A stretch of DNA of 64,000 nt, taken from Polyangiales bacterium. Lineage in GTDB: Bacteria; Myxococcota_A; Polyangia; Polyangiales; Polyangiaceae. The stretch's first letter is position 1, and every line of letters begins with the position of its first letter. The stretch spans positions 32,001 through 96,000 of the forward strand of contig JBBRLQ010000025.1 in assembly GCA_038231275.1 (NCBI GenBank), given 5' to 3'. The notes beneath the pieces are model-generated. The model was not told where the DNA came from and made no database searches. It saw nothing but the letters and a program-made list of their open reading frames with translations. Both the position numbers and the translations under genes were made by a program. Positions 18,524 to 38,223 of the stretch are shown piece after piece.

Positions 18524-20962
18524 TCACCTGCCATTGTAGGGCATGACGGGCCGTACTTTGATCCCCGCGGCCTCGAAGACTTCGATCGTTGCAGCCCACT
18601 CTTCGGGGCTTCGAGGCCCATAGCGACCAGAACCTCCGTTGATGATCGCTTCGGGTTGTGCGCCAGGTTCGTGGACAAATCGCATTTCCCCGGCGGAAAA
18701 CGCGCCCTGGTCCGGGGGACTCAGGTTGCTGTGGACGACGTTCCCGCGCGGGGTGGTAAACGGAATCCCTTCGCGAGCGATGTTCAGGCCGCCTTGGTCC
18801 ACCGTGTAGAGGTAGACGCCGTTGGGGTCTGCCCGGTTTGTGACCGTGAGATCGCCCTCCGGAACCGGGGACCTCACCACGTCGTCGGGGACGGGGCTGT
18901 CAGGACTGACGCGGAACGCTTGCGACAGCTCCTTGTTCGTGCCCTGTTCGACGAGCGCATCGAGCTCGCCGGGCGGCATGTCGGGATTCGCCTTCGTGAG
19001 GTTCGCCCGCAGCCGCGCGGCCACCGCAGCGCGCCCCTCGGCGGAGAAGAGGGCGACGTCTTCGTTCGGAAGGATCTCGCGGTTCGGCGCGCGCGGCGCG
19101 CCGCCAACGGCCTCTTGCAGCGCGTTCATGCGCGCGGCCAGCTTCGTCGGGGCGGGCGGCGTTGCCTCGGCGGCCGTAATCTCGCTGGCCTTCGGCGCCG
19201 TGGCGGCGCCCTCGCACGTCGCGCAGGCGTTTTCTTTCGCGCCTCCGCCACCGCCAAGAGCGTCCTCTAGCCCCTTCGGCACTTCGGGGAGCTTCGGTCC
19301 GATCTCGCCCTTCCAACCCGGCGGCCGATAAATCTCGTGAACGTACCCCTTGCCGTACACCTCACCGATCGCAAATTCGTCGATCGGAATCCCCTCGGGA
19401 GCCGCATCGTGAGGGAAGCGGATGACGCCCTTCTGCCCGTTGAGGCCGACTCCAGGCTCGCCCCCCAGCTCGATGAGTCGCGCCTTGGGGATCGCGAGGA
19501 CGATGCCGTCACGGTAGAACGGCGTTCCCTCGGCGAACCAGATGTTGTCCGCGTTGACACCTTGCTTGCCGAACGCGCGGCCGGACTTGAGACCCCCCTC
19601 GAGCACACCCGGCAGCGCTTCGTCCGGAATGACCGAATAGGCCATCTCCGGGTTGACCGCCGTCGGATGCCCGTCGGCGTACAGCTGCTCGAACACTGCG
19701 TCCTGATCCGAAGCGCGTCGCACGTTGTTGGCGTTCGCGAGCATCTCTTCGGCGCTTGGCCGCGGAGTAGGCGCCACTTCTCCGGCGACGGGCTCGGGTG
19801 AACCGCCCTCGAGAAGCTTGGGGCCGGTTCCGCCCTCCAGAAGCTTGGGGCCGGTTCCGCCTTCGAGAAGCTTGGGTCCCGTTCCGCCCTCGAGAAGCTT
19901 GGGGCCGGTTCCGCCCTCGAGAAGCCGGGGTCCGCCTGTGCCGACCGGCTCGGTCCCCTTCATGACCCAGACGCCTTCCGAGTTCTGGACCATCTCGATC
20001 GGCTCGTTCACCCGCGCCGCGGGTCCTTCGAGCATCGGCCGTGCTTCGGGCGAGAGCACTTCGACGCCGGGCTTGCCGCCGCCGGTGAACCCTTCGAGAA
20101 GCTTGCCGCCCCCCTCCATGAGCTTGCCGCCTGCCGCACCCGCGACGAGACCGCCGCTCGTATGGAAGAACTGCTCGAAGCGATGGTCGCTGTAGCCCGC
20201 GGCGCTGTCGATCGCGGCGCCGCCTACCCCGCCGAGGTACGAGCCGCCCTTGAAAATTCCGAACCCCGCGCCGAGCTGGAGTGCCCCCTTGAAGAACGCG
20301 CCGAGACCCGTGCCGATGCTGCCCGCCGTCATCCCCGCGGCGACGCCGCCCACGACCACGGTGAGCGCCGCGGCGCCGAGGCCGATCATTCCGAAGATCA
20401 TTCCGACGTCGTGCAGCGCGGTGCCGATGTTGTGGAGCTTGGACGCGAACGTCTCCTCGTAAGGAACGTCGCTCGCGACCTTGGGGCCGTTCAAATACGT
20501 GTACTGCGTCTGCGGCAGGCACTGGCCGGTGCACGTGACCGTGTCCGTGTGACGCGCCGCCGGGAGCTGCCCGATGCCGATGAACTTCGCGCCCTCTTTG
20601 ATCTGGCTGCTGGAGCTGCATCCGGCCGGATCGGTCATTCGCGCGGCCATCTTGTTTTCGATGAAGACGGTCTCCAAACCCTTCTTGATCGCGCCGCAGA
20701 CCGAGCCGCTGACGTGATCTTCGTCGAAGTGCTCGCCGAGTCGCTCGCCGGCCCAGCCGCCCAAATAGAATGCGGACACCGCTCCAGCGCCTACGGCGAC
20801 GGCCGCGAGAATGGTGAGGCTCACCGGCGCGGTGATGATGATGACCGCCGCGATGATGGCCCCGAGGATGAGCCCGCCGACGAGACCCCAGAACGCGCCC
20901 CAGCCGGACGAGTGGCTCCCGACGTTGTCCCCCATGCGCGCGGCGAAGAGGACGTCGCTCAC
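18524..20962 (-). CDS. prePAAR-TMD1-PAAR-TMD2 T6SS effector (Tse6/Tre1-like architecture) with putative C-terminal toxin domain(s), 812 aa
   Basis: GTG start with AGAGGAG RBS; prePAAR AARMGDNVGSH; two hydrophobic regions flanking a PAAR domain (VFIENKMAARMTD...QLPAARHTDTVTC); Eag gene upstream. Confidence 0.88.
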   Translation of the reverse strand: MSDVLFAARMGDNVGSHSSGWGAFWGLVGGLILGAIIAAVIIITAPVSLTILAAVAVGAGAVSAFYLGGWAGERLGEHFDEDHVSGSVCGAIKKGLETVFIENKMAARMTDPAGCSSSSQIKEGAKFIGIGQLPAARHTDTVTCTGQCLPQTQYTYLNGPKVASDVPYEETFASKLHNIGTALHDVGMIFGMIGLGAAALTVVVGGVAAGMTAGSIGTGLGAFFKGALQLGAGFGIFKGGSYLGGVGGAAIDSAAGYSDHRFEQFFHTSGGLVAGAAGGKLMEGGGKLLEGFTGGGKPGVEVLSPEARPMLEGPAARVNEPIEMVQNSEGVWVMKGTEPVGTGGPRLLEGGTGPKLLEGGTGPKLLEGGTGPKLLEGGTGPKLLEGGSPEPVAGEVAPTPRPSAEEMLANANNVRRASDQDAVFEQLYADGHPTAVNPEMAYSVIPDEALPGVLEGGLKSGRAFGKQGVNADNIWFAEGTPFYRDGIVLAIPKARLIELGGEPGVGLNGQKGVIRFPHDAAPEGIPIDEFAIGEVYGKGYVHEIYRPPGWKGEIGPKLPEVPKGLEDALGGGGGAKENACATCEGAATAPKASEITAAEATPPAPTKLAARMNALQEAVGGAPRAPNREILPNEDVALFSAEGRAAVAARLRANLTKANPDMPPGELDALVEQGTNKELSQAFRVSPDSPVPDDVVRSPVPEGDLTVTNRADPNGVYLYTVDQGGLNIAREGIPFTTPRGNVVHSNLSPPDQGAFSAGEMRFVHEPGAQPEAIINGGSGRYGPRSPEEWAATIEVFEAAGIKVRPVMPYNGR
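19803..19937. repeat. 27-bp coding tandem repeat (4 near-perfect units plus 1 degenerate) encoding GTGPKLLEG
   Basis: Unit CCGCCCTCGAGAAGCTTGGGGCCGGTT begins at 19803, 19830, 19857, 19884 and 19911. Confidence 0.95.
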
Positions 20963-21031
20963 GTGGAGCTCCTCTCGCCGAGGACGACGACGCACGCATG
21001 GAGGTGGGAGGGGGCTTGGGTCATTCGTTCT

Positions 21032-21589
21032 TCAGCGGCGACCGCCGCGGTAGCCGGGCATGGGGACGAGGGGCGGCGCGGACGGGTCTTGTGGGGTCTG
21101 ACTGGGTCGCGCGACGCTGGGCGGCGGACCGCCCGACGGCACGGGCGGCGGCGTGTCGAAGCGGACCGTCTTCAGGATCTCGTCGAAGAGCGGCCGCGAC
21201 GAGGCACCGTCCTTCGCGGGCGCCGTGGTCGTGAACGACGTCGCGACGCGGCCGGTCTCGATCGTGCGCTCCACGAACGTCACGGTTTGCTCGAGCTGCC
21301 CCGTGTGACCAATCCAAGTGTACCGGAGAAAAATTGCCGGCTGCCCGCCGAGCTGGGTCTCTTTGCTCTCGAGGAGATCGAAATCCTTCAGGTGCCGTCC
21401 GAGCTGGAGGAGCTGGCGGTCGGCGTGGCTCCGCAACGAATCGGCTTCCCGAATCGCCTCGCGCGTCATCACGAAGTTCGGCGCCGCGTCGCTAGAGGGT
21501 CCGACAGGAGCGGTGTAGGCCACGATGGTTCGGTCGACCCAGTTCGCAGGTGTTTCGAAGAAGGCATCTCGATCTTGGTGACGCGGCAT
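21032..21589 (-). CDS. Eag-family (DUF1795/DcrB) effector chaperone, 185 aa
   Basis: PANWVDRT, PNFVMTRE, DRQLLQL, LGGQPA...YTW...LEQ; immediately upstream of a prePAAR-TMD effector. Confidence 0.88.
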   Translation of the reverse strand: MPRHQDRDAFFETPANWVDRTIVAYTAPVGPSSDAAPNFVMTREAIREADSLRSHADRQLLQLGRHLKDFDLLESKETQLGGQPAIFLRYTWIGHTGQLEQTVTFVERTIETGRVATSFTTTAPAKDGASSRPLFDEILKTVRFDTPPPVPSGGPPPSVARPSQTPQDPSAPPLVPMPGYRGGRR

Positions 21590-21789
21590 GAAGTGGTCGT
21601 CCTCCTCGGGTTTCCTTGATCCCCCATGGTAGCGAGGGAGGGCAGATCTAGGGACGACGAAAAATCTGCCCGACCTCTAATGGATACGCCGGCCGAGGTG
21701 CGCCGCTCCCCTCCCCGTTCGAGGCGGGCGCGGGTCGACGCGGGCGCGTTCCGTTAAGAGAAGTAATTTTGAGTAGATAGCCGACGATT

Positions 21790-23656: not shown

Positions 23657-23665
23657 GCCCGAGCG

Positions 23666-24094
23666 ATGACGCGGCACGTCTTCGACGACACGACGCTGGA
23701 GTGCGGCGACGACTTCGTCCTCACGACGATCGTCGCGCAACGCGCGAAAAAGGGCGATTTCGCCCCAAATTTGGTGCTGACACGAGGCCCCCTTCGCGAC
23801 GAGGAGACCCTCGAGACCTACGTCGCCCGCCAGCTCGTGGAGCTGGCCAAGAGCCTGAAGAGCTTCAAGCTGCACGGGCGCACCGAAGTAGAGCTCGCGG
23901 GCCGACCGGCCCGTCGCATCGCGTGCGGATGGCAAGGCACGCAGGGTCACGTCGAGCAACGCATGACGATGGTCGCGATCGACGGGCGCGTCCTCACGTT
24001 CACCGTCACCGTGCCAAAGGCCAAGGCCGACGAGCTCTTTCCGCTGTTCGACGGCATCCTCGCGACCGTCGCCATCGGCGCGATCGCCGGCTGA
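23666..24094 (+). CDS. Second DUF1795/DcrB (Eag-like) protein, 142 aa
   Basis: PNLVLTRGPL...LETYVARQLVEL...LAGRPA...W...VEQ aligns by eye with the 21032..21589 product. Confidence 0.82.
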   Translation: MTRHVFDDTTLECGDDFVLTTIVAQRAKKGDFAPNLVLTRGPLRDEETLETYVARQLVELAKSLKSFKLHGRTEVELAGRPARRIACGWQGTQGHVEQRMTMVAIDGRVLTFTVTVPKAKADELFPLFDGILATVAIGAIAG

Positions 24095-27126: not shown

Positions 27127-29823
27127 GTGTCCGTCACGTCCAATAACCTCAAGCTGGCGTTCGCCAATGGGAACGAGTCGCTCGACGTGCGGCAGTTCTC
27201 CGTGCACGAGGGGATGAACGAGCTCTTCGAGGTGACGCTCCTCGCGATCTCGGACGACGCGGACGTCGACATCAACGGCATCGTCGGCAAGGGCGCCGCG
27301 TTCAAGCTCGAGACGCCAAACCACCTCGCCGCGCACAGCGTCCGCGTCTGGGCCGGCGTCGTCGCGCAGATGTCGCAGGTCCACTCGGAGCGCGCGCCGG
27401 GCCAGTCGATGTACCAGCTCACGATCGTCCCCGACGTGTGGCGGACGACGCTTCGCAAGAACAACCGCATCTACCAGCACAAAGACACGCCGACGATCGT
27501 GAAGGAGCTGCTCACGGAGTGGCAGATCACACCCGTCGACAAGCTGAAGAACAAATACGCGTGGCACGAGTACGTCGTGCAGTACGGCGAGACCGACTTC
27601 GCGTTCATCTCGCGCCTCCTCGAGGACGCGGGCATCTCGTATTATTTCAGCCACGACAAGACGAGCGGCAAGGGCGCCGACATCACGAAGCTCGTCTTGT
27701 CCGACGAGCCGACGAACAAAGAGAACCTGCGGAGCGGCCCGCTCTCCTACGCCGGGCATCAAACGCCGCGCTTTGGCGCGGACATGGACTTCTGCGCGAC
27801 GGTCACGCTCACGCAGCGCATGAAGCCCGGCAAGCAGACGATCCGCGACTACAACTTCCGCACGCCCCTCCTCAAGTCGTACAAGACGTCGAAGTCCGGC
27901 AAGAAGGACGAGGACAACTACGAGGAGTACCGGTACCAACCCGGCGGCTTCTGGTGGGACACGAAGAAGCCCGAGAAGGACGTCGCGGATCGCGATCACG
28001 CGCCGAACAACGACGAGCCCGGCGAGGGTCAGGCGCTCGCGAAGCGCACGATGGAAGCAGAGCGCCGCCGGCGGCTCCTCGTCGCCTTCCACACGAACGC
28101 GCTCGATCTCGCGCCTGGCAAGATCGTCGGCATCAACCAGGAGTCGGAGCACAAGAACCATCCGCGCAAGGATCTGGCGCCCGACAAGAAGATCCTCCTG
28201 CTCGAGACGAACCTCGAGGGCGAGCACAACGGCGACTGGTCGATGACGTCGACCGGCGTCTTCGCCGACGTCCCGTACCGCCCCGAGCGTAAGACCCCGC
28301 GGCCGAAGGTCTACGGCCTGCAGAGCGCGTTCGTGGTCGGACCCCAGGGGCAAGAGGTCTTCACCGACGAGTACGGCCGCGTCCGCGTGCAGTTCCACTG
28401 GGACCGCGAGGGCAAGTACGACGAGAACAGCTCGTGCTGGGTACGCGTGAGCCACGGCTGGGCGGGCGGCAAATTCGGCATGATGGCGATCCCGCGCGTC
28501 GGCCACGAGGTGCTCGTCGAGTTCTTCGAAGGCGATCCCGATCACCCGGTCATCGCGGGGCGTGTCTACAACGAGACGTCGCCCGTTCCGTGGACACTGC
28601 CCGCCGAAGCGACCAAGAGCGGCTGGCGCACCAACTCGCTGCCGTCGTCGCAGCCCGGCTACAACGAGCTCGTCTTCGAGGACGCGGCGGGCAAGGAAGA
28701 GATCCACTTCCAGGCGCAGAAGACGCTCTCGTCGATCATCAAGAACAACCAGTCGTCGAACATCGGCGGCATGCGCACCGCGGCGATCAAGACCGCCGAC
28801 TCTCTCGACGTCGGCGAGACGATGACGGTGCACGTCGGCGAGAACTACACCGAGGGCATCGGCCAGCACTACACGCTGTCGATCGGCAAGACGACGGGGA
28901 TCGAGATCTCCGATCAGAAGATCGTTCTCTCGACCGGCGACGCCAGCCTTCAGCTCGAGAAGGACAAGATCACCATCCAGGCGAAGGGCAACCTCCACTT
29001 CCACGCCGGGACCGGGATGGAGATCGGCTCCAAGAAGCCGGGCATGGTCATCCTTCAGGGGGGCAAGAACATTCGCGTGAATGACGGCACGGCAGGCCCG
29101 AAGCCGACCGTCGCCACGGTCCCGCAACGCGATCCGCCGAAGCCCGCGACCGGCGGTCCGGACGGCACGCCGCCGGTCATCCCGAGCGGCGGTGGCAAGA
29201 TCGACCCGCCCGGCAAAGTCGACGACGTCAAGGTCGACATGCCCGAGGAGAAGACCAGCGCGGCAAAGCAAGACGAGGCCGCGAAGAAGGGTCCGAAGCC
29301 GCCGCCCGCGGCGCCGGACACATGGGTCAAGGACCACCCCGACGACATCAATGCGGCGCTCAAGGCGCAGCGCGACCTCTTGACCGCGAAACAGACCGAG
29401 CTGAAGACCTGGGACGACCCCGCAAAGGCGAATTTCAAGAAGTACTTCGGCACGACCTCCGACGAGGCGAAAACGAAGATCTCCGACCGCATCGACAAGG
29501 AGCTGGATCTCAACTCCAAAATGACGAAGGACAACTTCCTCCAGGCGGAGAAGCACGAGGACGGGACGTTCGCGTACGTCTACCCCGACGACGCGACGCA
29601 CAAGGTCTACCTCGACAGCGCGTTCGAGAGCGCGCCGCTCACCGGCAAGGACTCGAAGGCCGGCACGCTGGGCCACGAGATGAGCCACTTCAACGACATC
29701 GGCGGCACCAAGGACGTGATCTACGGCATCGGCCCCGCCATCAAGCTCGCGAAGAAGGACCCGACCAAGGCGCTCAATAACGCGGACAGCTTCGAGTACT
29801 ACCTCGAGGGAGCGAAGTGGTGA
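27127..29823 (+). CDS. vgrG: Evolved VgrG with C-terminal M35 (aspzincin) metalloendopeptidase domain, 898 aa
   Basis: VQYGETDFAFISRLLEDAGI, TDEYGRVRVQFHWDR, IPRVGHEVLV; C-terminal FAYVYPDD...HEMSHF..IGGTKDVIYG...ALNNADSFEYYLE. Confidence 0.93.
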   Translation: MSVTSNNLKLAFANGNESLDVRQFSVHEGMNELFEVTLLAISDDADVDINGIVGKGAAFKLETPNHLAAHSVRVWAGVVAQMSQVHSERAPGQSMYQLTIVPDVWRTTLRKNNRIYQHKDTPTIVKELLTEWQITPVDKLKNKYAWHEYVVQYGETDFAFISRLLEDAGISYYFSHDKTSGKGADITKLVLSDEPTNKENLRSGPLSYAGHQTPRFGADMDFCATVTLTQRMKPGKQTIRDYNFRTPLLKSYKTSKSGKKDEDNYEEYRYQPGGFWWDTKKPEKDVADRDHAPNNDEPGEGQALAKRTMEAERRRRLLVAFHTNALDLAPGKIVGINQESEHKNHPRKDLAPDKKILLLETNLEGEHNGDWSMTSTGVFADVPYRPERKTPRPKVYGLQSAFVVGPQGQEVFTDEYGRVRVQFHWDREGKYDENSSCWVRVSHGWAGGKFGMMAIPRVGHEVLVEFFEGDPDHPVIAGRVYNETSPVPWTLPAEATKSGWRTNSLPSSQPGYNELVFEDAAGKEEIHFQAQKTLSSIIKNNQSSNIGGMRTAAIKTADSLDVGETMTVHVGENYTEGIGQHYTLSIGKTTGIEISDQKIVLSTGDASLQLEKDKITIQAKGNLHFHAGTGMEIGSKKPGMVILQGGKNIRVNDGTAGPKPTVATVPQRDPPKPATGGPDGTPPVIPSGGGKIDPPGKVDDVKVDMPEEKTSAAKQDEAAKKGPKPPPAAPDTWVKDHPDDINAALKAQRDLLTAKQTELKTWDDPAKANFKKYFGTTSDEAKTKISDRIDKELDLNSKMTKDNFLQAEKHEDGTFAYVYPDDATHKVYLDSAFESAPLTGKDSKAGTLGHEMSHFNDIGGTKDVIYGIGPAIKLAKKDPTKALNNADSFEYYLEGAKW

Positions 29824-30251
29824 GCGACACGCAGCCCAACGTCCACGTCACGCTCTCGCTGCACTCCTCGGAGCAGCAGCTGGTGGCCACGCTCGTCTAC
29901 AAGAACGCCGGGACGAACGTGGCGTTCATCGATCTCATCAACGGGTGCATCAAGGGCGAGCTGAAGAACGACGTGTTCGAGATCGTCGCGCAAGTGGCGG
30001 GCGCACCGGCGAAGGAGCCGATTCGTTACAAGGGGCCGCGCCTGAAGCGTCGCCAGCCGACCCTCCCGGATTTTTTGCGCCTCGAGGCGGGCGCGGCCGC
30101 CGAAGCCAACGTCCGCCTCGACACGGGCTACGCGTTCCCGGCCGGCCGCGGCACGTACAAGATCGTCTACTCGTCTGTCCACCAATTCCCGCACAACGAC
30201 GACTATTGGGAGCTCACGTCGAACGAGCTCACCGTCACGTTTCCGAAGTGA
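29820..30251 (+). CDS. Putative immunity protein resembling a free-standing M35 protease propeptide, 143 aa
   Basis: GTGA overlap with the vgrG stop; IRYKGPRLKRRQPTLPDFLRLEAG...VRLDTGYAF...GTYKIVY; no signal peptide. Confidence 0.72.
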   Translation: MSDTQPNVHVTLSLHSSEQQLVATLVYKNAGTNVAFIDLINGCIKGELKNDVFEIVAQVAGAPAKEPIRYKGPRLKRRQPTLPDFLRLEAGAAAEANVRLDTGYAFPAGRGTYKIVYSSVHQFPHNDDYWELTSNELTVTFPK

Positions 30252-30277: not shown

Positions 30278-33067
30278 ATGACCGCCACGTCCAACAACCT
30301 GAAGCTCGCGTTCGCCCACGGCGAAGACGCGCTGGACGTGCGTCATTTCTCCATCCACGAAGGGATGAGCGAGCTCTTCGAGGTGAGCGTCCTCGCCATT
30401 TCGGACGACGCGAACATCGACATCGACGATCTCGTCGGCCAAGGCGCCGCGCTGACCATGGTGATGCCGAACTACCAGGCGCTCCACAAGAAGCGCGTCT
30501 GGACCGGCGTAGTGGCGCACGCGTCGCAGGTGCACGCCGAGGAGCACCCCGGCCAGTCGATGTACCACGTGATGATCGTCCCCGACTTCTGGCGGACGAC
30601 GCTCCGGCGCAACAGCCGCATCTACCAGCACAAGGACGTGCCGACGATCGTGAAGGAGATGCTCCTCGAGTGGGGGATCACGCCCGACACGAGCAACCTC
30701 AAGGCGAAGTACCCGCAGCTCGAGTACTGCGTGCAGTACGGCGAGACCGACTTCGCGTTCATCTCGCGCCTGCTCGAAGAGGCGGGCATCACCTACTTCT
30801 TCAAGCACGACGGGACGAGCGGCACCGGCACGAGCATCACGATCCTGATGCTGAGCGACACGCCGACCGACAAGGCGAACGAGCGCGGCGGCGTCCTCGC
30901 CTACGCGGGGCACCAGACGCCGGCGTTCGGGCGCGACAAGGACTTCTGCTCGACGGTGCTGGTCACGCAGCGCATGAAGCCGGGCAAATTCACGGTCCGC
31001 GACTTCAACTTCCGGACGCCGCTCCTCAAGTCGTACCAGACGGTCCCCTCGGGCAAAGCCGACGAGGACAAGTACGAGCAGTACGACTACGTCCCCGGCG
31101 CGTACTGGATCGATACCAAGCGCATCGAGAAGCCGGTGGCCGACGGCGGCACCGGACCGAACAACGACGAGCCGGGCGCAGGCAAAGACTTCGTGCAGCA
31201 CGGCATGGAGGGCGAGCGCCGCCGCCGCCTCCAGGTCGCCTTCAACACGAACGCGACGGATCTGGCGCCCGGCAAGATCATCGGCATCAACCAGGAGTCG
31301 GACTCCAAGGACCATCCGCGCAAGGATCTCGCGCCCGCGAAGAAGATCCTCCTCATCGAGACGACCCTCGAGGGCGAGGCGACCGGCGAGTGGACGATGA
31401 CGTGCAGCGGCGTGTTCGCGGAGTTCCCGTACCGCCCCGAGCGCCGGACACCGAAGCCGCGCATCTACGGCGTGCAGAGCGCGTTCGTCGTCGGCCCCGC
31501 CGGGCAAGAGGTCTACACCGACGAGTACGGCCGCGTCCGCGTTCAGTTCCACTGGGACCGCGAAGGCAAGTACGACGAGAAGAGCTCGTGCTGGATGCGC
31601 GTCAGCCAGGGCTGGGCGGGCGGCAGCTTCGGCATGGTCAACCTGCCGCGCGTCGGTCACGAGGTGATGGTCGAGTTCTTCGAGGGCGATCCCGATCGTC
31701 CGATCGTGACCGGCCGCGCGCACAACGAGACCTCGCCGGTCACGTGGACGCTGCCTGAGCAGCAGACCAAGAGCGGCTGGCGCACCAACACGCTGCCGTC
31801 GTCGGCCAAGCTCGGTTACAACGAGATGGTCTTCGAGGACGCGGCGGCGAACGAGCTCATCCACTTCCAAGCGGAGAGCCTGCTGTCGTACGTCGTGAAG
31901 GACAGCGAGTCGGCGAGCATCGGCAAGGGCCGCTCAGTGACCATCGGCGGTCCCGACAAGAACGGTCAGCCGGTCGGCCTCGATACGCTCGACGTCGGCA
32001 AGACCGTGAGCCTCAACGTCGGCAAGACGTACGTGATCGGCGTCGGCAAGCAGTACTTGCTCTCGCTCGGGCAGACGACCGGCATCCTCATCACCGACAA
32101 GCGCATCGCGATGACGACGGGTCAGGCGAGCGTCACGCTCAACGGCACGAGCATCAACATCATGGCGCTCGGATCCATCATCTGCAACGCCGGGGGTGCC
32201 GTCGAAATCACGTCGCAGAGCAACCCGATCCTGATTCAGGGCGGGGAGACCGTGCACTTCAACCCCGTGGGGAGCGGCCCGGCGCCGACCCCTGTGCCGG
32301 TACCGCCCGCGCATCCGCCCGCGCCGCCCGACGGCGGACCCGTGGGCACGCCGCCCGTGATCCCGAGCGGTCGCACGCCGGTGGATCCGCCGGGCCCGAT
32401 CGAGGACGCGACGCTGGGAGGTCCGCCGCCGCCCAAGCCCTCCGCGGGCGGTGGCTCGGCCGATTCCCGCGACAGCAAAGCGGGCACGCCGCCCGCCGCG
32501 CCGCCCCCGGCCGCGAAAGACGCCGTCACCGACTTGGGCGGTGGCATGAAGGCCAAGGGCACGCCGGGGTTCGTGTCGGCGGTGAAGGATCGCCTGACGA
32601 CGATCGGAAAGACCACGACCGGCAAGGCGCTCCTCGGCGACATCGCGGCGAGCGGGCACACGGTCACGTTCGAGGAAACGGGCGACGACAACTCCTACTG
32701 CAGCCCGGTCGACCCCGTCGCGGCCGGCGGCAAGGGCAAGCCGACCAGCGTGGACGGGGTGGTCGGGACCGGGAAGGGCTCCGACTCCACCCTCGAGCTC
32801 AACCCCAATTTCACGATGCCGAACCCCGCAGGGAAACCCGAGCCGAACGACGGCGTCTTGTTCCACGAGCTCGTTCACGCCGACGACAATGCTCGCGGTC
32901 AGCGCGACCGGACGCTTGATCCGGTATGGGGCAATCTGGCCGAGAAGCACGCCCTGACGGCGGAAAACGGCTACCTGAAAGAAATCGGCTACGGCTTTCA
33001 CAACATCAATCACGAGGGGGGCTGGGCGCCGGACGCTCCCCCGCCCGCCCCGGTGAAAAAACCATGA
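30278..33067 (+). CDS. vgrG: Evolved VgrG with C-terminal HExxH zincin (M91/NleD-like) domain, 929 aa
   Basis: Core visibly paralogous to 27127..29823; tail TTTGKALLGDI...GKGSDSTLELNP...VLFHELVHA...E...TAENGYLKEIG. Confidence 0.9.
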   Translation: MTATSNNLKLAFAHGEDALDVRHFSIHEGMSELFEVSVLAISDDANIDIDDLVGQGAALTMVMPNYQALHKKRVWTGVVAHASQVHAEEHPGQSMYHVMIVPDFWRTTLRRNSRIYQHKDVPTIVKEMLLEWGITPDTSNLKAKYPQLEYCVQYGETDFAFISRLLEEAGITYFFKHDGTSGTGTSITILMLSDTPTDKANERGGVLAYAGHQTPAFGRDKDFCSTVLVTQRMKPGKFTVRDFNFRTPLLKSYQTVPSGKADEDKYEQYDYVPGAYWIDTKRIEKPVADGGTGPNNDEPGAGKDFVQHGMEGERRRRLQVAFNTNATDLAPGKIIGINQESDSKDHPRKDLAPAKKILLIETTLEGEATGEWTMTCSGVFAEFPYRPERRTPKPRIYGVQSAFVVGPAGQEVYTDEYGRVRVQFHWDREGKYDEKSSCWMRVSQGWAGGSFGMVNLPRVGHEVMVEFFEGDPDRPIVTGRAHNETSPVTWTLPEQQTKSGWRTNTLPSSAKLGYNEMVFEDAAANELIHFQAESLLSYVVKDSESASIGKGRSVTIGGPDKNGQPVGLDTLDVGKTVSLNVGKTYVIGVGKQYLLSLGQTTGILITDKRIAMTTGQASVTLNGTSINIMALGSIICNAGGAVEITSQSNPILIQGGETVHFNPVGSGPAPTPVPVPPAHPPAPPDGGPVGTPPVIPSGRTPVDPPGPIEDATLGGPPPPKPSAGGGSADSRDSKAGTPPAAPPPAAKDAVTDLGGGMKAKGTPGFVSAVKDRLTTIGKTTTGKALLGDIAASGHTVTFEETGDDNSYCSPVDPVAAGGKGKPTSVDGVVGTGKGSDSTLELNPNFTMPNPAGKPEPNDGVLFHELVHADDNARGQRDRTLDPVWGNLAEKHALTAENGYLKEIGYGFHNINHEGGWAPDAPPPAPVKKP

Positions 33068-33714
33068 GCGGCACTACGTCCGCGCGACCGCTGAGGATGA
33101 CGGCGCTCCCAGGCTCAGCCAGCGGAGTGCAGCTCGCGGCCGATGTCTCGCTCGGCGACAGTGAGCTCAATCTCCACGCGCGGGTCGAGAACAAGGGGCG
33201 TGCTGCCATCTACGTCCTCCACGAGCTGTGGAGGATCGGGCCCGACAGGAACCCCGTGCGCGATCCCGAGCGCGCGTATCGCTCGCTCGCGCGCGACACT
33301 CTGCGCGTGCTGCTCGGAGTTCCGACGCTGCCCATCGACCGAACCGTACGTCTTCATATGAAGCCCTTCGCGGCGCGCGTCGAGCCGGGCGGTGCCCTCG
33401 ATCTGCGCCTCGGGCTTCCGCTACCGACGCGCGAGTACAACCCCTACTACACCGACAAGCCCGAGACCGAGTACCACGACGTAACCGCGAACGCGGTGGA
33501 GCTCTACGTCCAGCTCGTCACTCAGGGCGACGGCATCCACGCGCAGCCTGCCGGTTGGCCGTGGGCCGCGGGGCTCTACGACGTCGGTCCCGCGTTCGAG
33601 CTCGGCGGCCAGCATCGAGGGGAGTTCGTCGCCGCAGCCACGCAGCTTCCGGGATTCCGCGCGCTGCGGCGCGTCGGGGATTTCGCCCGCATGTCGAGAG
33701 AGGCAACGCCATGA
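33064..33714 (+). CDS. Putative immunity protein for the M91-like VgrG, 216 aa
   Basis: ATGA overlap with the vgrG stop; beta-rich (ARVENKGRAAIYVL, RVEPGGALDLRL); no signal peptide. Confidence 0.65.
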   Translation: MSGTTSARPLRMTALPGSASGVQLAADVSLGDSELNLHARVENKGRAAIYVLHELWRIGPDRNPVRDPERAYRSLARDTLRVLLGVPTLPIDRTVRLHMKPFAARVEPGGALDLRLGLPLPTREYNPYYTDKPETEYHDVTANAVELYVQLVTQGDGIHAQPAGWPWAAGLYDVGPAFELGGQHRGEFVAAATQLPGFRALRRVGDFARMSREATP

Positions 33715-33742: not shown

Positions 33743-36505
33743 ATGAGCGCCACGACGAACAACCTCAAGCTCACGTTCGCGAACGGCAACGACTCGCTCG
33801 ACGTCCGCCATTTCTCCGCCCACGAGTCGATAAACGATCTCTTCGAGCTGAGCATCCTCGCGATCTCGGACGATCCGGACATCGACATCACCGGCCTCGT
33901 CGGCAAGGGCGCCATCTTCAAGCTCGAGACGCCGAACCACCGTGCGCTCTATCCGACGCGCGTGTGGGGCGGCGTCGTCGCGCACATGTCCCAGGTGCAC
34001 GCGCAGCCCCCGCCGGGCCAGTCGATGTACCACCTCATGATCGTCCCCGATCTTTGGCGGACGACGCTGCGCGTGAACAATCGCATCTACGAGCACAAGG
34101 ACACGCCGACGATCGTCCGCGAAGTCCTTTTTGAGTGGAAGATCGACGTCGTCAACAAGCTCAAGGACAAGTACGCGCTGCACGAGTACGTCGTGCAGTA
34201 CGGCGAGACTGACTACGACTTCGTTAGCCGGCTCCTCGAGGACGCCGGCATCACCTACTTCTTCCATCAGGACGCCGACAGCGGCAAGGGCCAGGCGATC
34301 ACGAAGCTCGTCCTCACCGACAAGCCGACCGACAAGGAGTTCGAGCGCCCCGGCATCCTCGCCTACGCGCACCACACGACCCCGCGCTTCGGCGCCGACC
34401 CCGACTACTGCACGACGGTCACGCTCACGCAGCGGAACAAGCCCGGCAAGTTCATCCAAAGGGACTTCAACTTCCGCACGCCGCTTCTGAAGTCGAAGAT
34501 CGAGTTCGGTTCGGGCGATCCGATCGAGGACAAATACGAGCAGTACGACTACCTGCCGGGCGCCTTCTGGTGGGACACGAAGAAGCCCGAGAAGGACGTC
34601 GCCGACGTCGACAACGCGCCCAACAACGACGAGCAGGGTGAGGGCCCCAAGCTCAGTAGGCGCATCCTCGAGGCCGAGCGTCGCCGGCGCATCCTCGTCT
34701 CGTTCCACACGAACGCCACCGATCTCGCACCCGGAAAGATTGTCGGCGTCAATCAGGACTCGCCGCACAAGAACCACCCGCGCGCGGATCTGGCGCCCGA
34801 CAAGAAGATCCTCCTCATCGAGACCCACATCGAGGGGCAGCACAACGGCGAGTGGACGATGACCGCCAACGGGGTCTTCGCCGCCGAGCCGTACCGCCCC
34901 GAGCGAAAGACGCCGAAGCCGCGCATCTACGGCATGCAGAGCGCGTTCGTCGTCGGCCCGCCCGGGCAGGAGATCTACACCGACGAATACGGCCGCGTGC
35001 GCGTGCAGTTCCACTGGGACCGCGAGCACAAGTACGACAAGGCGTCGTCGTGTTGGGTCCGCGTCAGCCAGAATTGGGCGGGCGGCAGCTTCGGCATGAT
35101 GAACATCCCCCGCGTCGGGCACGAGGTGCTCATCGGCTTCTACGAGGGAGATCCCGATCGCCCGGTCATCATGGGCCGCGTCTACAACGAGACCTCGCCG
35201 GTGCCGTGGACGCTGCCGGACAACGCCACCAAGAGCGGCTGGCGCAGCAACTCGCTGCCGACCAAGACCAAGCTCGGCTACAACGAGCTCTCGTTCGAGG
35301 ACGCCGCCGGCAAAGAAGAGATCCACCTCCAGGCCGAAAACGACCTGTCGTACGTCGTCAAGAGCACCGAGACGATCAACATCGGCAACTCACGCTCCGC
35401 CAAGGTCGGCAAGACGGAGAAGCTCGACGTCTTCAAGTTCAAGGCGTCGCACATCGGCGAGTCGGAGACCATCGGCGTCGGTGAGCACTTCGTGCTGTCG
35501 GTCGTCACGGACACTGGGTACGAGATCAAGGACAAGTCGATCGCGTCATCGACCGGCAAGGAGCAGGCGAGCCTCACCCTCGTCGGGGGAGACATCTCGT
35601 TCAACGCCGCGGCGCAGCTCGTCATGCGCGCGGGCAAGGGCATCCAGATCACGTCGTCGGGCGGCGACATCAAGGTGCAAGGCGGCTCGCAGGTCCGCGT
35701 GAACGATCACGAGGAGGGCGGCGACCCGAAGCTAGACCACGTGCCGCCGTACGATCCGCCGGCCGCTCCGAAGGGCGGACCCAACGGCACCAAGCCGGTC
35801 ATCCCGAGCGGGCAAGGCTCGTTCGACAAGCCGGGGCAGCTCGAGGACGTCAACACGGATCCCAAGCCGCCGCCGGAGACCACTGCGAAACCAGGGGCGC
35901 CCGGGGACGCGGCGGCGGCCGGCGCGGCGGCGCCCGCAGCAGCCGCGGACGGGAAGAAGACCATTTCGTTTCCGGACAACGTCTGCAAGCAGTTCGGACA
36001 GCAGATGAAGGACAGCTTCCCCGGCGGGAAGAGCCAGGAGCACGGCGGAATTCTCGTCACAGACGCCGATGGGAACATGCAGCTACGAAACGCCGGGGCG
36101 GGTCTGGACCCGAAAGGCGGATCGTGGTCGCCGAACCGCACCGTGGAGAAGGGCGACACGACCCTCGGCCTCTTCCACACCCACCCGTACGACAAGAGCG
36201 AGGGCGGCTACTCCAACGTCTCGTTCAGCGGTCAGGACGCGGCGCTCGTGGCCAACTCGTCTCCCGAGACCATGACCGTCGTAAGGAGCGGGGATGGCCT
36301 CTTCGTCCTCAAGCCTACGGCGAAGACTCCGCACGACATCGACTACGAAAAGACGAACAACGATACGAACCGGCGGATTCAAGAGCTCGTCACCGGCGGG
36401 ATGGCCTTCGATGCCGCGAGCCGCAAGGCGACCTTGGAGAACGCGAACAAGCTGAACATGGAATACTATGAGGGGCAGAACTGTACCGCGACGCAGGTCA
36501 ATTAG
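33743..36505 (+). CDS. vgrG: Evolved VgrG with C-terminal JAB/MPN-like (DUF4329/Tox-JAB-like) domain, 920 aa
   Basis: GGAGGG RBS; paralogous VgrG core; tail QEHGGIL...LFHTHP...SFSGQD (JAMM-type E..HxH..SxxD). Confidence 0.9.
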   Translation: MSATTNNLKLTFANGNDSLDVRHFSAHESINDLFELSILAISDDPDIDITGLVGKGAIFKLETPNHRALYPTRVWGGVVAHMSQVHAQPPPGQSMYHLMIVPDLWRTTLRVNNRIYEHKDTPTIVREVLFEWKIDVVNKLKDKYALHEYVVQYGETDYDFVSRLLEDAGITYFFHQDADSGKGQAITKLVLTDKPTDKEFERPGILAYAHHTTPRFGADPDYCTTVTLTQRNKPGKFIQRDFNFRTPLLKSKIEFGSGDPIEDKYEQYDYLPGAFWWDTKKPEKDVADVDNAPNNDEQGEGPKLSRRILEAERRRRILVSFHTNATDLAPGKIVGVNQDSPHKNHPRADLAPDKKILLIETHIEGQHNGEWTMTANGVFAAEPYRPERKTPKPRIYGMQSAFVVGPPGQEIYTDEYGRVRVQFHWDREHKYDKASSCWVRVSQNWAGGSFGMMNIPRVGHEVLIGFYEGDPDRPVIMGRVYNETSPVPWTLPDNATKSGWRSNSLPTKTKLGYNELSFEDAAGKEEIHLQAENDLSYVVKSTETINIGNSRSAKVGKTEKLDVFKFKASHIGESETIGVGEHFVLSVVTDTGYEIKDKSIASSTGKEQASLTLVGGDISFNAAAQLVMRAGKGIQITSSGGDIKVQGGSQVRVNDHEEGGDPKLDHVPPYDPPAAPKGGPNGTKPVIPSGQGSFDKPGQLEDVNTDPKPPPETTAKPGAPGDAAAAGAAAPAAAADGKKTISFPDNVCKQFGQQMKDSFPGGKSQEHGGILVTDADGNMQLRNAGAGLDPKGGSWSPNRTVEKGDTTLGLFHTHPYDKSEGGYSNVSFSGQDAALVANSSPETMTVVRSGDGLFVLKPTAKTPHDIDYEKTNNDTNRRIQELVTGGMAFDAASRKATLENANKLNMEYYEGQNCTATQVN

Positions 36506-37196
36506 CCTCCTCGCCGCTGTGATTGCGTCGGCCGCATGTGCCGCCGGCGCGCCGAGCCCCCCCACCGCGGGCGAAGGACCGAAGATGCTCCCCAACGACA
36601 TCACGAAACTGGAGCTTGTCACACGGCGGGGCAACTTCCGCGAGGTGACGGAGATCTCACCGAAGGAGCTCGTCCTTGTCGCGGAGGACGTCGACGACGG
36701 CGCCCTTCCCGTCGTACGGACTACCTGGAAGGGGGACTACCTCCACGGCCTTCCCGCAACGCTAAAGGACCTGAAGAGCGCCCGCGAGGAGACCGACCCG
36801 GAGTACTGGCACGAGCTGAAGTTGACGTTCTCCGCCGAACATCCCGTGGGCTTGCTATGGGGGAGCGGCTCCGAGGACGCGGGGCACCGCGCGTTCCGAG
36901 AGGCGATCGCAACCGTGGCCGGCCTCCGGTACAAGGAGGCCGAACGCCTTCTCGAGTCGGGGCGCAAGGCTAGCGCGGCCGGTAAGTTCGAGGATGCCTC
37001 CCTGGAGTTCAAGCGGGGCATTCGGGTCCTTGGCAACCTCTATTGGGAGCCGAAATCGCTGGACCACACCGGCCAAAAGCTCGTCGCGGCCTACGCCCTC
37101 GCCCGCGACGGCCACAAGGACGTCGCCGCCTCGACGCAAGAGCGAGTGCTCGAGACGCGCCTGAAGGGATACCTGGCACGTCAGCTCCCGCACTGA
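36468..37196 (+). CDS. Putative immunity protein for the JAB-type VgrG; possible lipoprotein signal and helical/TPR-like C-terminus
   Basis: Directly downstream of and overlapping vgrG; N-terminus ISLLAAVIASAAC; alternative ATG at 36585. Confidence 0.6.
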   Translation: MRGRTVPRRRSISLLAAVIASAACAAGAPSPPTAGEGPKMLPNDITKLELVTRRGNFREVTEISPKELVLVAEDVDDGALPVVRTTWKGDYLHGLPATLKDLKSAREETDPEYWHELKLTFSAEHPVGLLWGSGSEDAGHRAFREAIATVAGLRYKEAERLLESGRKASAAGKFEDASLEFKRGIRVLGNLYWEPKSLDHTGQKLVAAYALARDGHKDVAASTQERVLETRLKGYLARQLPH

Positions 37197-37224: not shown

Positions 37225-38223
37225 ATGCCCTTCGCTAACGCCACCCCCTTCGCGGCCCTCGACGTCCCGATGCTCGATCGCACCGGGCGCGAGATGGTCG
37301 TCGTCATCGTCAAGGCGACGTTCACGCTGGGCAAGGGGGCCAAAGAGGGCAAGCTCGTCCCCGCCGACGAGCCCGCGCCGGTTCGCGTCACCGACGTGCT
37401 GCGCGATCCCAAGAACGCCGAGCGATCGAGCGCGCTTTACCCGAGCGATCTGTGCCTCGAGAAGCGCGGTACCGATCTCGTCATCGTCGGCAAGGCGGTG
37501 TCGAAGAAGAAGGTCACCTACGTCGACGTTGGCATCTCGGCGAAGGCCAAGACCGTCACCTTGCGCGTGCACGGCATGCGCGAGTATTTCCGCGGGCTGA
37601 TGGAGGTCGCGATCAGCGCACCGGTGCCGTTCGAGGAGATGCCCATCGAATGGGAGCGCGCGTACGGCGGGGCGAGCGAGGACTTCGGCGTCGTCGAGCA
37701 GCGCAATCCCGCCGGCGTGGGCGTGGCGAAGAGCGACAAGACGCTCGTAGGCAAGCTCGCACCGCAGATCGAGCACCCCGGCGCGCCGCACAAGACGTCG
37801 AAGGACAAGCACCCGCCCGCCGGCATCGGCTCGATCCTTCCGCATTGGTCGCCGCGCCTCGAGCGCGCGGGGACGTTCGACGCGGAGTGGAAGAAGACGA
37901 AGATGCCGCTCATGCCGCCGGACTTCGACGTGCGGCACTACAACGTCGCGGCGGCGCCTCTGGTGTTCGAGCAAGGGCTCGCGCCGGGAGATCCCATTTC
38001 GATCTTGGGGATGAGCCCCGATTTGTTCGCCTTCGCCCTCCCTGCCCTGCCGATCTTCATCGAGGCGCGGTACGACGAGAAGACCGAGACCGCGCGGCCG
38101 CAGGTGGACACCATCTTGATCGAGCCATCAAAAGGGCAAATCGAGCTCGTCGTTCGCAAGGCGTTCCCGGTCGGGCGCGGACGGTCGGCGCTGCGCGAGC
38201 TTCGGGCCGACGTCGATGCCTGA
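37225..38223 (+). CDS. DUF2169-family T6SS adaptor, 332 aa
   Basis: NATPF...VVIVKATF...DLCLEKRGTDL...MPIEWERAYGG...RNPAGVG...WSPR...AGTFDAEW...PPDFDVRHYN...DTILIEP. Confidence 0.92.
   Translation: MPFANATPFAALDVPMLDRTGREMVVVIVKATFTLGKGAKEGKLVPADEPAPVRVTDVLRDPKNAERSSALYPSDLCLEKRGTDLVIVGKAVSKKKVTYVDVGISAKAKTVTLRVHGMREYFRGLMEVAISAPVPFEEMPIEWERAYGGASEDFGVVEQRNPAGVGVAKSDKTLVGKLAPQIEHPGAPHKTSKDKHPPAGIGSILPHWSPRLERAGTFDAEWKKTKMPLMPPDFDVRHYNVAAAPLVFEQGLAPGDPISILGMSPDLFAFALPALPIFIEARYDEKTETARPQVDTILIEPSKGQIELVVRKAFPVGRGRSALRELRADVDA

Follow-up and report, generated by a model that had tools for sequence, protein, structure and literature searches.

The question raised by this locus is whether a protease toxin of a type VI secretion system (T6SS) can be held in check by a relative of the protease family's own prodomain, made as a separate protein. 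The locus lies in a 64,000-nucleotide stretch of the genome of a Polyangiales bacterium (assembly GCA_038231275.1, contig JBBRLQ010000025.1, positions 32,001 to 96,000 of the forward strand), hereafter called the window. Here a VgrG spike gene ends in an M35 metalloprotease domain and is overlapped at its very end by a small gene of 144 codons. We find that the 144-aa protein is homologous to the AsaP1-type M35 prodomain. It is a prodomain homolog and not a propeptide in the strict sense, as it is encoded by a separate open reading frame (ORF) downstream of the protease and is not covalently joined upstream of it. Very probably, as the homology and a modelled complex suggest, it is the cognate immunity protein, or antitoxin, of the VgrG-M35 effector, which it would inhibit in trans in the manner of a prodomain and probably also help to fold.

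The effector gene (27127..29823, + strand) encodes a specialised VgrG of 898 aa which is recognised by TIGR03361 (VgrG, E 8e-138) and by the Pfam families Phage_GPD, Phage_base_V, Gp5_trimer_C and Aspzincin_M35. By the Pfam domain limits the spike core occupies aa 27-598 (27205..28920, +); in the translation it is followed by a Pro/Lys-rich linker, aa 599-731 (28921..29319, +), which has no Pfam domain and carries the motif GGPDGTPPVIPSG common to the two next VgrGs, and then by the protease domain, aa 732-898 (29320..29820, +). Aspzincin_M35 (PF14521) matches aa 765-893 with E 7.5e-29 (101 bits against a Pfam cut-off of 30), and an M35 profile built in this study gave E 2.6e-66. Over its last 167 residues the protein aligns with mature AsaP1 from Aeromonas salmonicida (2x3a residues 209-338, E 3.5e-25) and with the Grifola peptidyl-Lys metalloendopeptidase (1g12, E 3.6e-22). 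The aspzincin signature, HExxH together with GTxDxxYG, is present as HEMSH and GTKDVIYG. Both the zinc-binding and catalytic HEMSH motif (tail H119, E120 and H123; 29674..29688, +) and the Asp of GTKD, the third aspzincin zinc ligand (tail D132; 29713..29715, +), are invariant in a 9-row alignment of M35 tails; the role of the GTxD motif in aspzincins has been described in PMC12924839. Close to the C-terminus, NADSFE aligns to NADNHE in the AsaP1 stretch NNADNHEY, which brings its D-S-F-E (tail D156 and E159; 29785..29796, +) onto the acids of the Lys-specific S1' pocket, and Lys specificity is predicted from this alignment. The P1' specificity of the Grifola enzyme is reported to be set by E157 (PMC11985622). 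A profile of the prodomain family described below gave no match at E<=10 anywhere in the VgrG, hence its tail is of the mature type and lacks a prodomain in cis. In all six frames of the window the only match of this profile was the ORF 29781-30248 (E 3.3e-47), which is that of the small gene.

The small gene (29817..30251, +) begins with a GTG codon overlapping the VgrG stop codon (GTGGTGA), while with the second GTG (29820) as start codon the protein would have 143 aa and the overlap would be GTGA. A Shine-Dalgarno-like site, GAGGGAG, lies within the 3' end of the VgrG gene (29806-29812, +), 4 nt before the GTG at 29817 and 7 nt before that at 29820. The GC3 of the gene is 0.87 and the G+C content of the window is 67.6%. 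No Pfam or NCBIfam model matches the ORF. The protein is predicted to be cytoplasmic: it has neither a signal peptide nor a lipobox, and its N-terminus, MVSDTQPNVHV, is non-hydrophobic, with strand 1 starting from residue 9. An earlier note, made from the letters of the sequence, had described the VgrG tail as a mature-type M35 domain lacking a prodomain and the next gene as translationally coupled to it; both descriptions hold, and the translation of 29817..30251 agrees with the reading quoted there.

The same note had proposed homology to M35 prodomains on the basis of a propeptide pattern, N..F.V...Y.G...KR..P...D...L.PG...Y...G.Y. This pattern fits the consensus of the family collected here, N.VF.I...Y.G...KR..P...DF..L.PG...V.L...Y.F..G...Y, and the homology, the lack of which the note had named as refuting its idea, proved strong by profile, by structure and by the architecture of natural proenzymes. 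A word-based search with the small protein gave only two close relatives. When these were combined into a 3-sequence profile, searching exhaustively with HMMER gave 213 representatives at E<=1e-3, 73 of them at E<=1e-10, most being free-standing proteins of 130-190 aa, and family members are labelled 'hypothetical protein' in their sources. Neither Pfam nor NCBIfam holds a model for this family; DUF4232 matches 6 of the 136 aligned members weakly (best E 8.7e-5). It is a sizeable unannotated protein family. When the profile of the 136-sequence alignment was run against the PDB, it matched AsaP1 at residues 25-148 of 2x3a/2x3b (E 9.5e-20, 73.8 bits), the next match having E 0.82. Two family members, P0074 (346 aa) and P0114 (370 aa), consist of a leader with a lipobox-like Cys, the prodomain-like domain (at 38-144 and 51-166, respectively) and a C-terminal Aspzincin_M35 domain; in natural M35 pre-pro-enzymes this prodomain-like domain thus forms the pro-region. 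Such cis instances, with the domain N-terminal to M35 in one polypeptide, number 50 among the loci and proteins examined, locus L012 being one example. Among 7999 longer candidates the 136-sequence profile found no homolog at E<=1e-5, which is weak evidence, and a search for near homologs with the same profile gave 58 proteins with no fused form among them. The nearly invariant columns of the 136-sequence alignment are N30, F54, Y71, G73, K77, Y105, Y118 and S135. The top PDB match of the single sequence was BurrH (E 2e-6), which we rejected as spurious, since BurrH is a repeat protein and its score merely adds up weak matches.

The AlphaFold2 model of the small protein, computed from the 136-sequence alignment (pLDDT 95.1, pTM 0.88), shows an all-beta sandwich. 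A Foldseek search with this model, of the kind the earlier note had suggested, placed AsaP1 proenzyme chains at ranks 1-4 (E 1e-6 to 2e-5), the fifth match following at E 3e-3. Alignment by VIA-align to AsaP1 residues 23-153 gave Z 14.4-14.8 with an rmsd of 1.6-1.9 A over 114-120 residues, and the identity to the AsaP1 prodomain is 23-25%. The next structural match after AsaP1 was 3isy (Z 9.3), an intracellular proteinase inhibitor of Bacillus subtilis; ApaG scored Z 8.2, and numerous other beta-sandwiches lie at Z 7-9. Of the named Atlas clusters BsuPI comes closest (0.89), and none of the 136 family members matches PF12690 (BsuPI) at E<=0.01. The structural match and the Atlas neighbour hint at a remote link between these two families of beta-sandwich protease inhibitors.

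A conserved residue of the small protein, predicted to occupy the S1' pocket, is Lys77 (codon 30045..30047, +). Its column is K in 322 and the next column R in 315 of 338 domain instances, a set which comprises all proteins and loci collected and includes many close copies, so that the instances are not independent. By context, the lysine is present in 13/13 instances following an M35 gene, 50/50 in cis, 52/54 convergent with an M35 gene, 25/25 without an M35 gene in the flank and 182/196 of unassigned context. Lys77 aligns to the K of LIKRAAP in AsaP1, and a Y-x-G-x3-K-R loop is common to both proteins. In AsaP1, too, a prodomain lysine is reported to occupy the S1' pocket. We modelled the complex of the VgrG tail (9-row alignment) with the small protein (136-sequence alignment) in three runs alongside three controls. 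The ipSAE was 0.90 in all three runs and the best of the three controls gave 0.00; this mark is reached by 116 of 157 solved complexes and by 2 of 215 mismatched pairs, counts that hold only roughly for custom alignments such as ours. At least 93% of contacts are common to the runs, and the pLDDT of the partner is at least 91. On the small protein the predicted interface comprises residues 51-52, 70-81, 84, 121, 123 and 128-130. The loop R70-P81 (RYKGPRLKRRQP; 30024..30059, +) is predicted to lie in the active-site cleft, the placement that the earlier note had asked about for the KR loop, and its residues 73-77 pair antiparallel to the tail edge strand T83-Y88 in a substrate-like manner. In the model Lys77 contacts tail residues T83-Y86, F102, T116, H119, E120, A155 and D156, and for its contacts to H119, E120, A155 and D156 the expected error is 0.4-0.7 A. 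Both D156 and E159 fall within the predicted interface.

The pairing of an M35 gene with a downstream small gene is not confined to this locus, and the search for further pairs that the earlier note recommended was successful. In the same genome, contig C3 (locus L007, 1043-2301, - strand) holds a second M35 gene (Pfam E 1.5e-24) with an ATGA-coupled paralog of the small gene of 35% identity. This M35 gene is neither a VgrG nor does it contain a cis prodomain, and no Pfam family matches the N-terminal 130 aa of its product or the upstream 237-aa ORF. A Myxococcales metagenome-assembled genome (L017) encodes an 891-aa VgrG-M35, then a small gene 67% identical to ours and then the next VgrG. Among 400 other genomes of the phylum, seven had a match at E<=1e-5, and four of the seven matches (L011, L013, L014 and L015) directly follow an ORF ending in Aspzincin_M35. 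Two of the four upstream ORFs, L011 118-1944 (genome G349) and L014 67-1935 (genome G222), carry eCIS_core (PF13699). Going by this domain, the module of M35 and prodomain-like gene appears to be also a cargo of extracellular contractile injection systems (eCIS). As to the other matches in the phylum, L012 is a fused proenzyme, and no M35 was found in the flanks, which are short, of L009 and L010. Five further family members (P0016, P0021, P0043, P0044 and P0116) bear MQT(I/A)LN-like N-terminal extensions arising from over-called starts. When the frames were worked out by hand, the extension proved to be the NADNFEYY motif of the upstream M35 gene in another frame, and these genes therefore overlap the end of an M35 gene as well.

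Free-standing copies also occur beside complete zymogens. A subfamily whose members are named in their sources from Massilia, Duganella and Pseudoduganella (Oxalobacteraceae-type) has a signal-like N-terminus, and is represented by 80 metagenome loci (L018-L094), many of which come from a few sample series and are not independent. In 41 of the 80, the free-standing gene stands convergent with one or two M35 proenzyme genes that keep their own cis prodomains, as detected by the same profile; in 15 no cis prodomain could be detected for the M35 gene in the piece retrieved, which is often cut, and one locus has the fused form only. The free-standing gene of this type looks like a periplasmic guard against premature activation. 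In a tree of 117 domain rows, identity-filtered beforehand, 7 of the 114 inner branches were starred; the starred branches force at least 2 label changes for cis and at least 3 for trans, and the best tree has 6 and 10. As the tree is poorly resolved, we draw no direction between the cis and trans forms. Since free-standing homologs also adjoin complete zymogens, duplication of the prodomain is a likely source of the small gene, at least as likely as fission, and a literal split is weakened. The earlier note had presented the pair as a split zymogen whose propeptide, after splitting and reordering, acts in trans. The homology of the free-standing gene supports the prodomain part of this proposal, and its account of a proenzyme split and reordered is weakened by the copies beside complete zymogens. 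The tree favours neither fission nor duplication.

From these observations we can outline how the pair may work. Through the overlapping stop and start codons the small protein would be made together with the VgrG-M35 and would bind its protease tail in the cytoplasm of the producer. The loop R70-P81 would occupy the cleft like a substrate and Lys77 would fill the Lys-specific S1' pocket, around D156 and E159, beside the HExxH zinc site. With its catalytic site covered, the effector would stay latent until loaded and fired, the inhibitor being removed presumably before or after firing, and sister cells possessing the small gene would be protected from the incoming tail. The small protein would probably assist the M35 tail in folding as well. 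It would thus do in trans what a prodomain does in cis, which makes it a candidate for the cognate immunity protein.

Several findings weigh against this interpretation. A PDB search with the single sequence gave the AsaP1 prodomain at E 0.16 only, and the 3-sequence profile gave no AsaP1 match in the PDB at all; the link to AsaP1 therefore needs a deep profile or a structure. A similar complex has already been solved in the AsaP1 zymogen (2x3a-c), because of which the high complex score may reflect memory, and the model shows likeness, not binding. No M35 was found within the flanks retrieved in 23 of the 80 Oxalobacteraceae-type loci, and the domain is also found C-terminal after fn3 in large proteins without M35; the fold is therefore not always tied to an adjacent M35. 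Furthermore, a tight, substrate-like inhibitor raises the question of how the toxin is freed for delivery. The copies after fn3 without M35, and also tandem duplicates, were noticed in P0097, P0099, P0075 and P0134 and in P0037, P0121 and P0140, with the KR loop kept; one possibility is that fn3-linked or tandem copies are orphan inhibitors or decoys.

Three other explanations of the small protein have to be considered beside trans inhibition by a cognate immunity protein. Myxobacteria are predators, and the toxin could target prey, against which no immunity is needed; the small protein might then be mainly a folding chaperone in trans or a loading factor for the M35 tail, giving no protection against the toxin of sister cells. 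Homology to a prodomain would suit this role, and a role in folding is plausible because mature peptidyl-Lys metalloendopeptidases expressed without their prodomain formed inclusion bodies (PMC11985622). Being a chaperone is, however, compatible with being an inhibitor, and both the conservation of Lys77 and its predicted plugging of the catalytic site favour inhibition, while the gene order, the coupling and two neighbouring cassettes of VgrG, toxin and small ORF fit effector-immunity pairs; we therefore regard a chaperone without immunity function as unlikely.

The prodomains of M35 zymogens are removed after export (PMC11985622), and by analogy the small protein could ride with the spike as a latency factor, stripped off or degraded only after arrival in the target cell, instead of staying at home as immunity. 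It has eight lysines at which a Lys-specific protease could cleave, and some members of the family bear lipoprotein-like or signal-like leaders. On the other hand, a leader is absent from the protein encoded here, and the immunity proteins of T6SS effectors generally stay behind, which leaves this explanation with a very small probability. Finally, if the adjacency were incidental, the small protein would be a generic ApaG-like or BsuPI-like beta-sandwich unrelated to the protease, and the crowd of beta-sandwiches at Z 7-9, with 3isy and ApaG as examples, and BsuPI as the nearest named Atlas cluster could be cited in its favour. Against this, AsaP1 stands far above them all (Z 14.8), its prodomain shares recognisable identity with the small protein and is retrieved by the family profile, and genes of the family accompany M35 under unrelated modes of delivery as well; we find an incidental neighbour hardly credible.

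As to the setting of the pair, the window contains a complete T6SS core (TssG, TssF, gp25-like TssE, Hcp, TssC, TssA, TagF, TssM, TssL, TssK and ClpV). It further encodes a PAAR protein, a DUF2169 protein and five VgrGs, three of them in a tandem array on the + strand with starts at 27127, 30278 and 33743; the C-terminal tails of these three differ and a small ORF comes after each. The second VgrG (929 aa; cassette 30278-33714) has an effector-like C-terminal domain, Peptidase_M91 (PF14891, E 1.8e-12), and is overlapped by a 216-aa ORF (33064-33714) for which no Pfam or NCBIfam match was found; the two are likely to form a further effector-immunity cassette. The third (920 aa; cassette 33743-37196) shows an HTHPY...S..D stretch in its tail and a weak match to DUF4329 (E 0.015, under the cut-off), and is followed by a 242-aa ORF without a family and then by the DUF2169 gene (37225-38223). 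All three share the linker motif GGP(D/V/N)GT(P/K)PVIPSG directly ahead of their differing toxin tails (at approximately 29140-29200, 32290-32350 and 35760-35820), which, as far as sequence can tell, looks like a conserved junction for tail swapping. Two DcrB-family (PF08786) genes, 21035-21676 (-) and 23657-24091 (+), flank the region by the 835-aa PAAR protein (18527-21031, -) and may be additional effector accessory or immunity genes.

If the small protein is indeed the immunity protein of the VgrG-M35 effector, the origin of a toxin-immunity pair becomes traceable, with an immunity protein descended from the zymogen inhibitor of the toxin's own family. To our knowledge, relatives can seldom be recognised for the immunity proteins of contact-dependent toxins, and their origins are mostly obscure. 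For the candidate described here, both sequence and structure lead back to the prodomain of the very family to which the protease belongs, and this descent in turn suggests its mechanism, namely that a conserved lysine plugs the Lys-specific pocket. It is quite possible, and we put it forward tentatively, that a single family of prodomains has switched repeatedly between the cis and the trans state and serves as the antidote wherever M35 proteases are weapons. Four roles would then be distinguished: the cis prodomain of secreted zymogens, a guard encoded separately next to complete zymogens, cytoplasmic immunity to M35 toxins borne by VgrG or eCIS, and orphans fused to surface proteins that defend against foreign M35 toxins. 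The family can be used as a marker for M35 toxins, whether carried by T6SS, by eCIS or by another vehicle, and points to specific inhibitors and folding aids of natural origin for proteases of the Lys-N type, which are reportedly hard to produce (PMC11985622).

Among known systems, the closest in sequence and fold is the AsaP1 zymogen of A. salmonicida (2x3a, 2x3b and 2x3c), in which prodomain and catalytic domain are parts of one chain; both families are common to it and to the pair described here. In the window, in contrast, the prodomain-like part is a separate gene after the protease, lacks a signal peptide and needs no processing site, and the protease forms the tail of a VgrG spike of the T6SS, whereas enzymes of the AsaP1 type are secreted via the general pathway. 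BsuPI/Ipi of B. subtilis (3isy, PF12690) is likewise a small cytoplasmic beta-sandwich protease inhibitor, and kinship with it is only a lead; BsuPI inhibits a serine protease. Our literature search, which lay mostly outside subscription journals, found no described immunity protein homologous to an M35 prodomain.

As regards function, a parallel is T6EC12/T6IC12 of Methylocaldum szegediense, in which a PF14521 T6SS cargo effector is toxic in the E. coli cytoplasm, and its downstream predicted immunity protein was modelled over the active-site cleft and cloned for rescue assays (10.64898/2026.09.28.754971). The abstract of this 2026 bioRxiv preprint states that two of three immunity proteins were validated, without giving their names. 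Compared by description only, both systems have a T6SS-delivered PF14521 toxin and a downstream predicted immunity gene; unlike the cargo effector T6EC12, the toxin here is a VgrG fusion, and the word 'propeptide' occurs 0 times in the available text of the preprint. VgrG2b-PA0261 of Pseudomonas aeruginosa resembles our pair in that the VgrG ends in a zinc metallopeptidase toxin and has a small immunity gene downstream of it, PA0261 binding the VgrG2b toxin domain in the periplasm and requiring a signal peptide and disulfide bonds (PMC6899460, PMC10673891). The VgrG2b tail was absent from the PDB matches of the M35 tail at E<=0.01, and the accessible parts of the two papers describe no prodomain homology for PA0261. 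The principle of a prodomain-like inhibitor acting in trans is shared with SpeB-Spi of Streptococcus pyogenes, where the protease gene adjoins a separate inhibitor gene encoding 'a propeptide analogue' (Kagawa et al. 2005, cited in PMC2873492); SpeB, however, is a C10 cysteine protease of unrelated fold which retains its own prodomain, and the two are not a contact-dependent toxin-immunity pair. Thus VgrG-borne metallopeptidase toxins with immunity genes are already known, and what the pair in the window adds to them is an immunity candidate drawn from the protease family's own prodomain and placed in trans.

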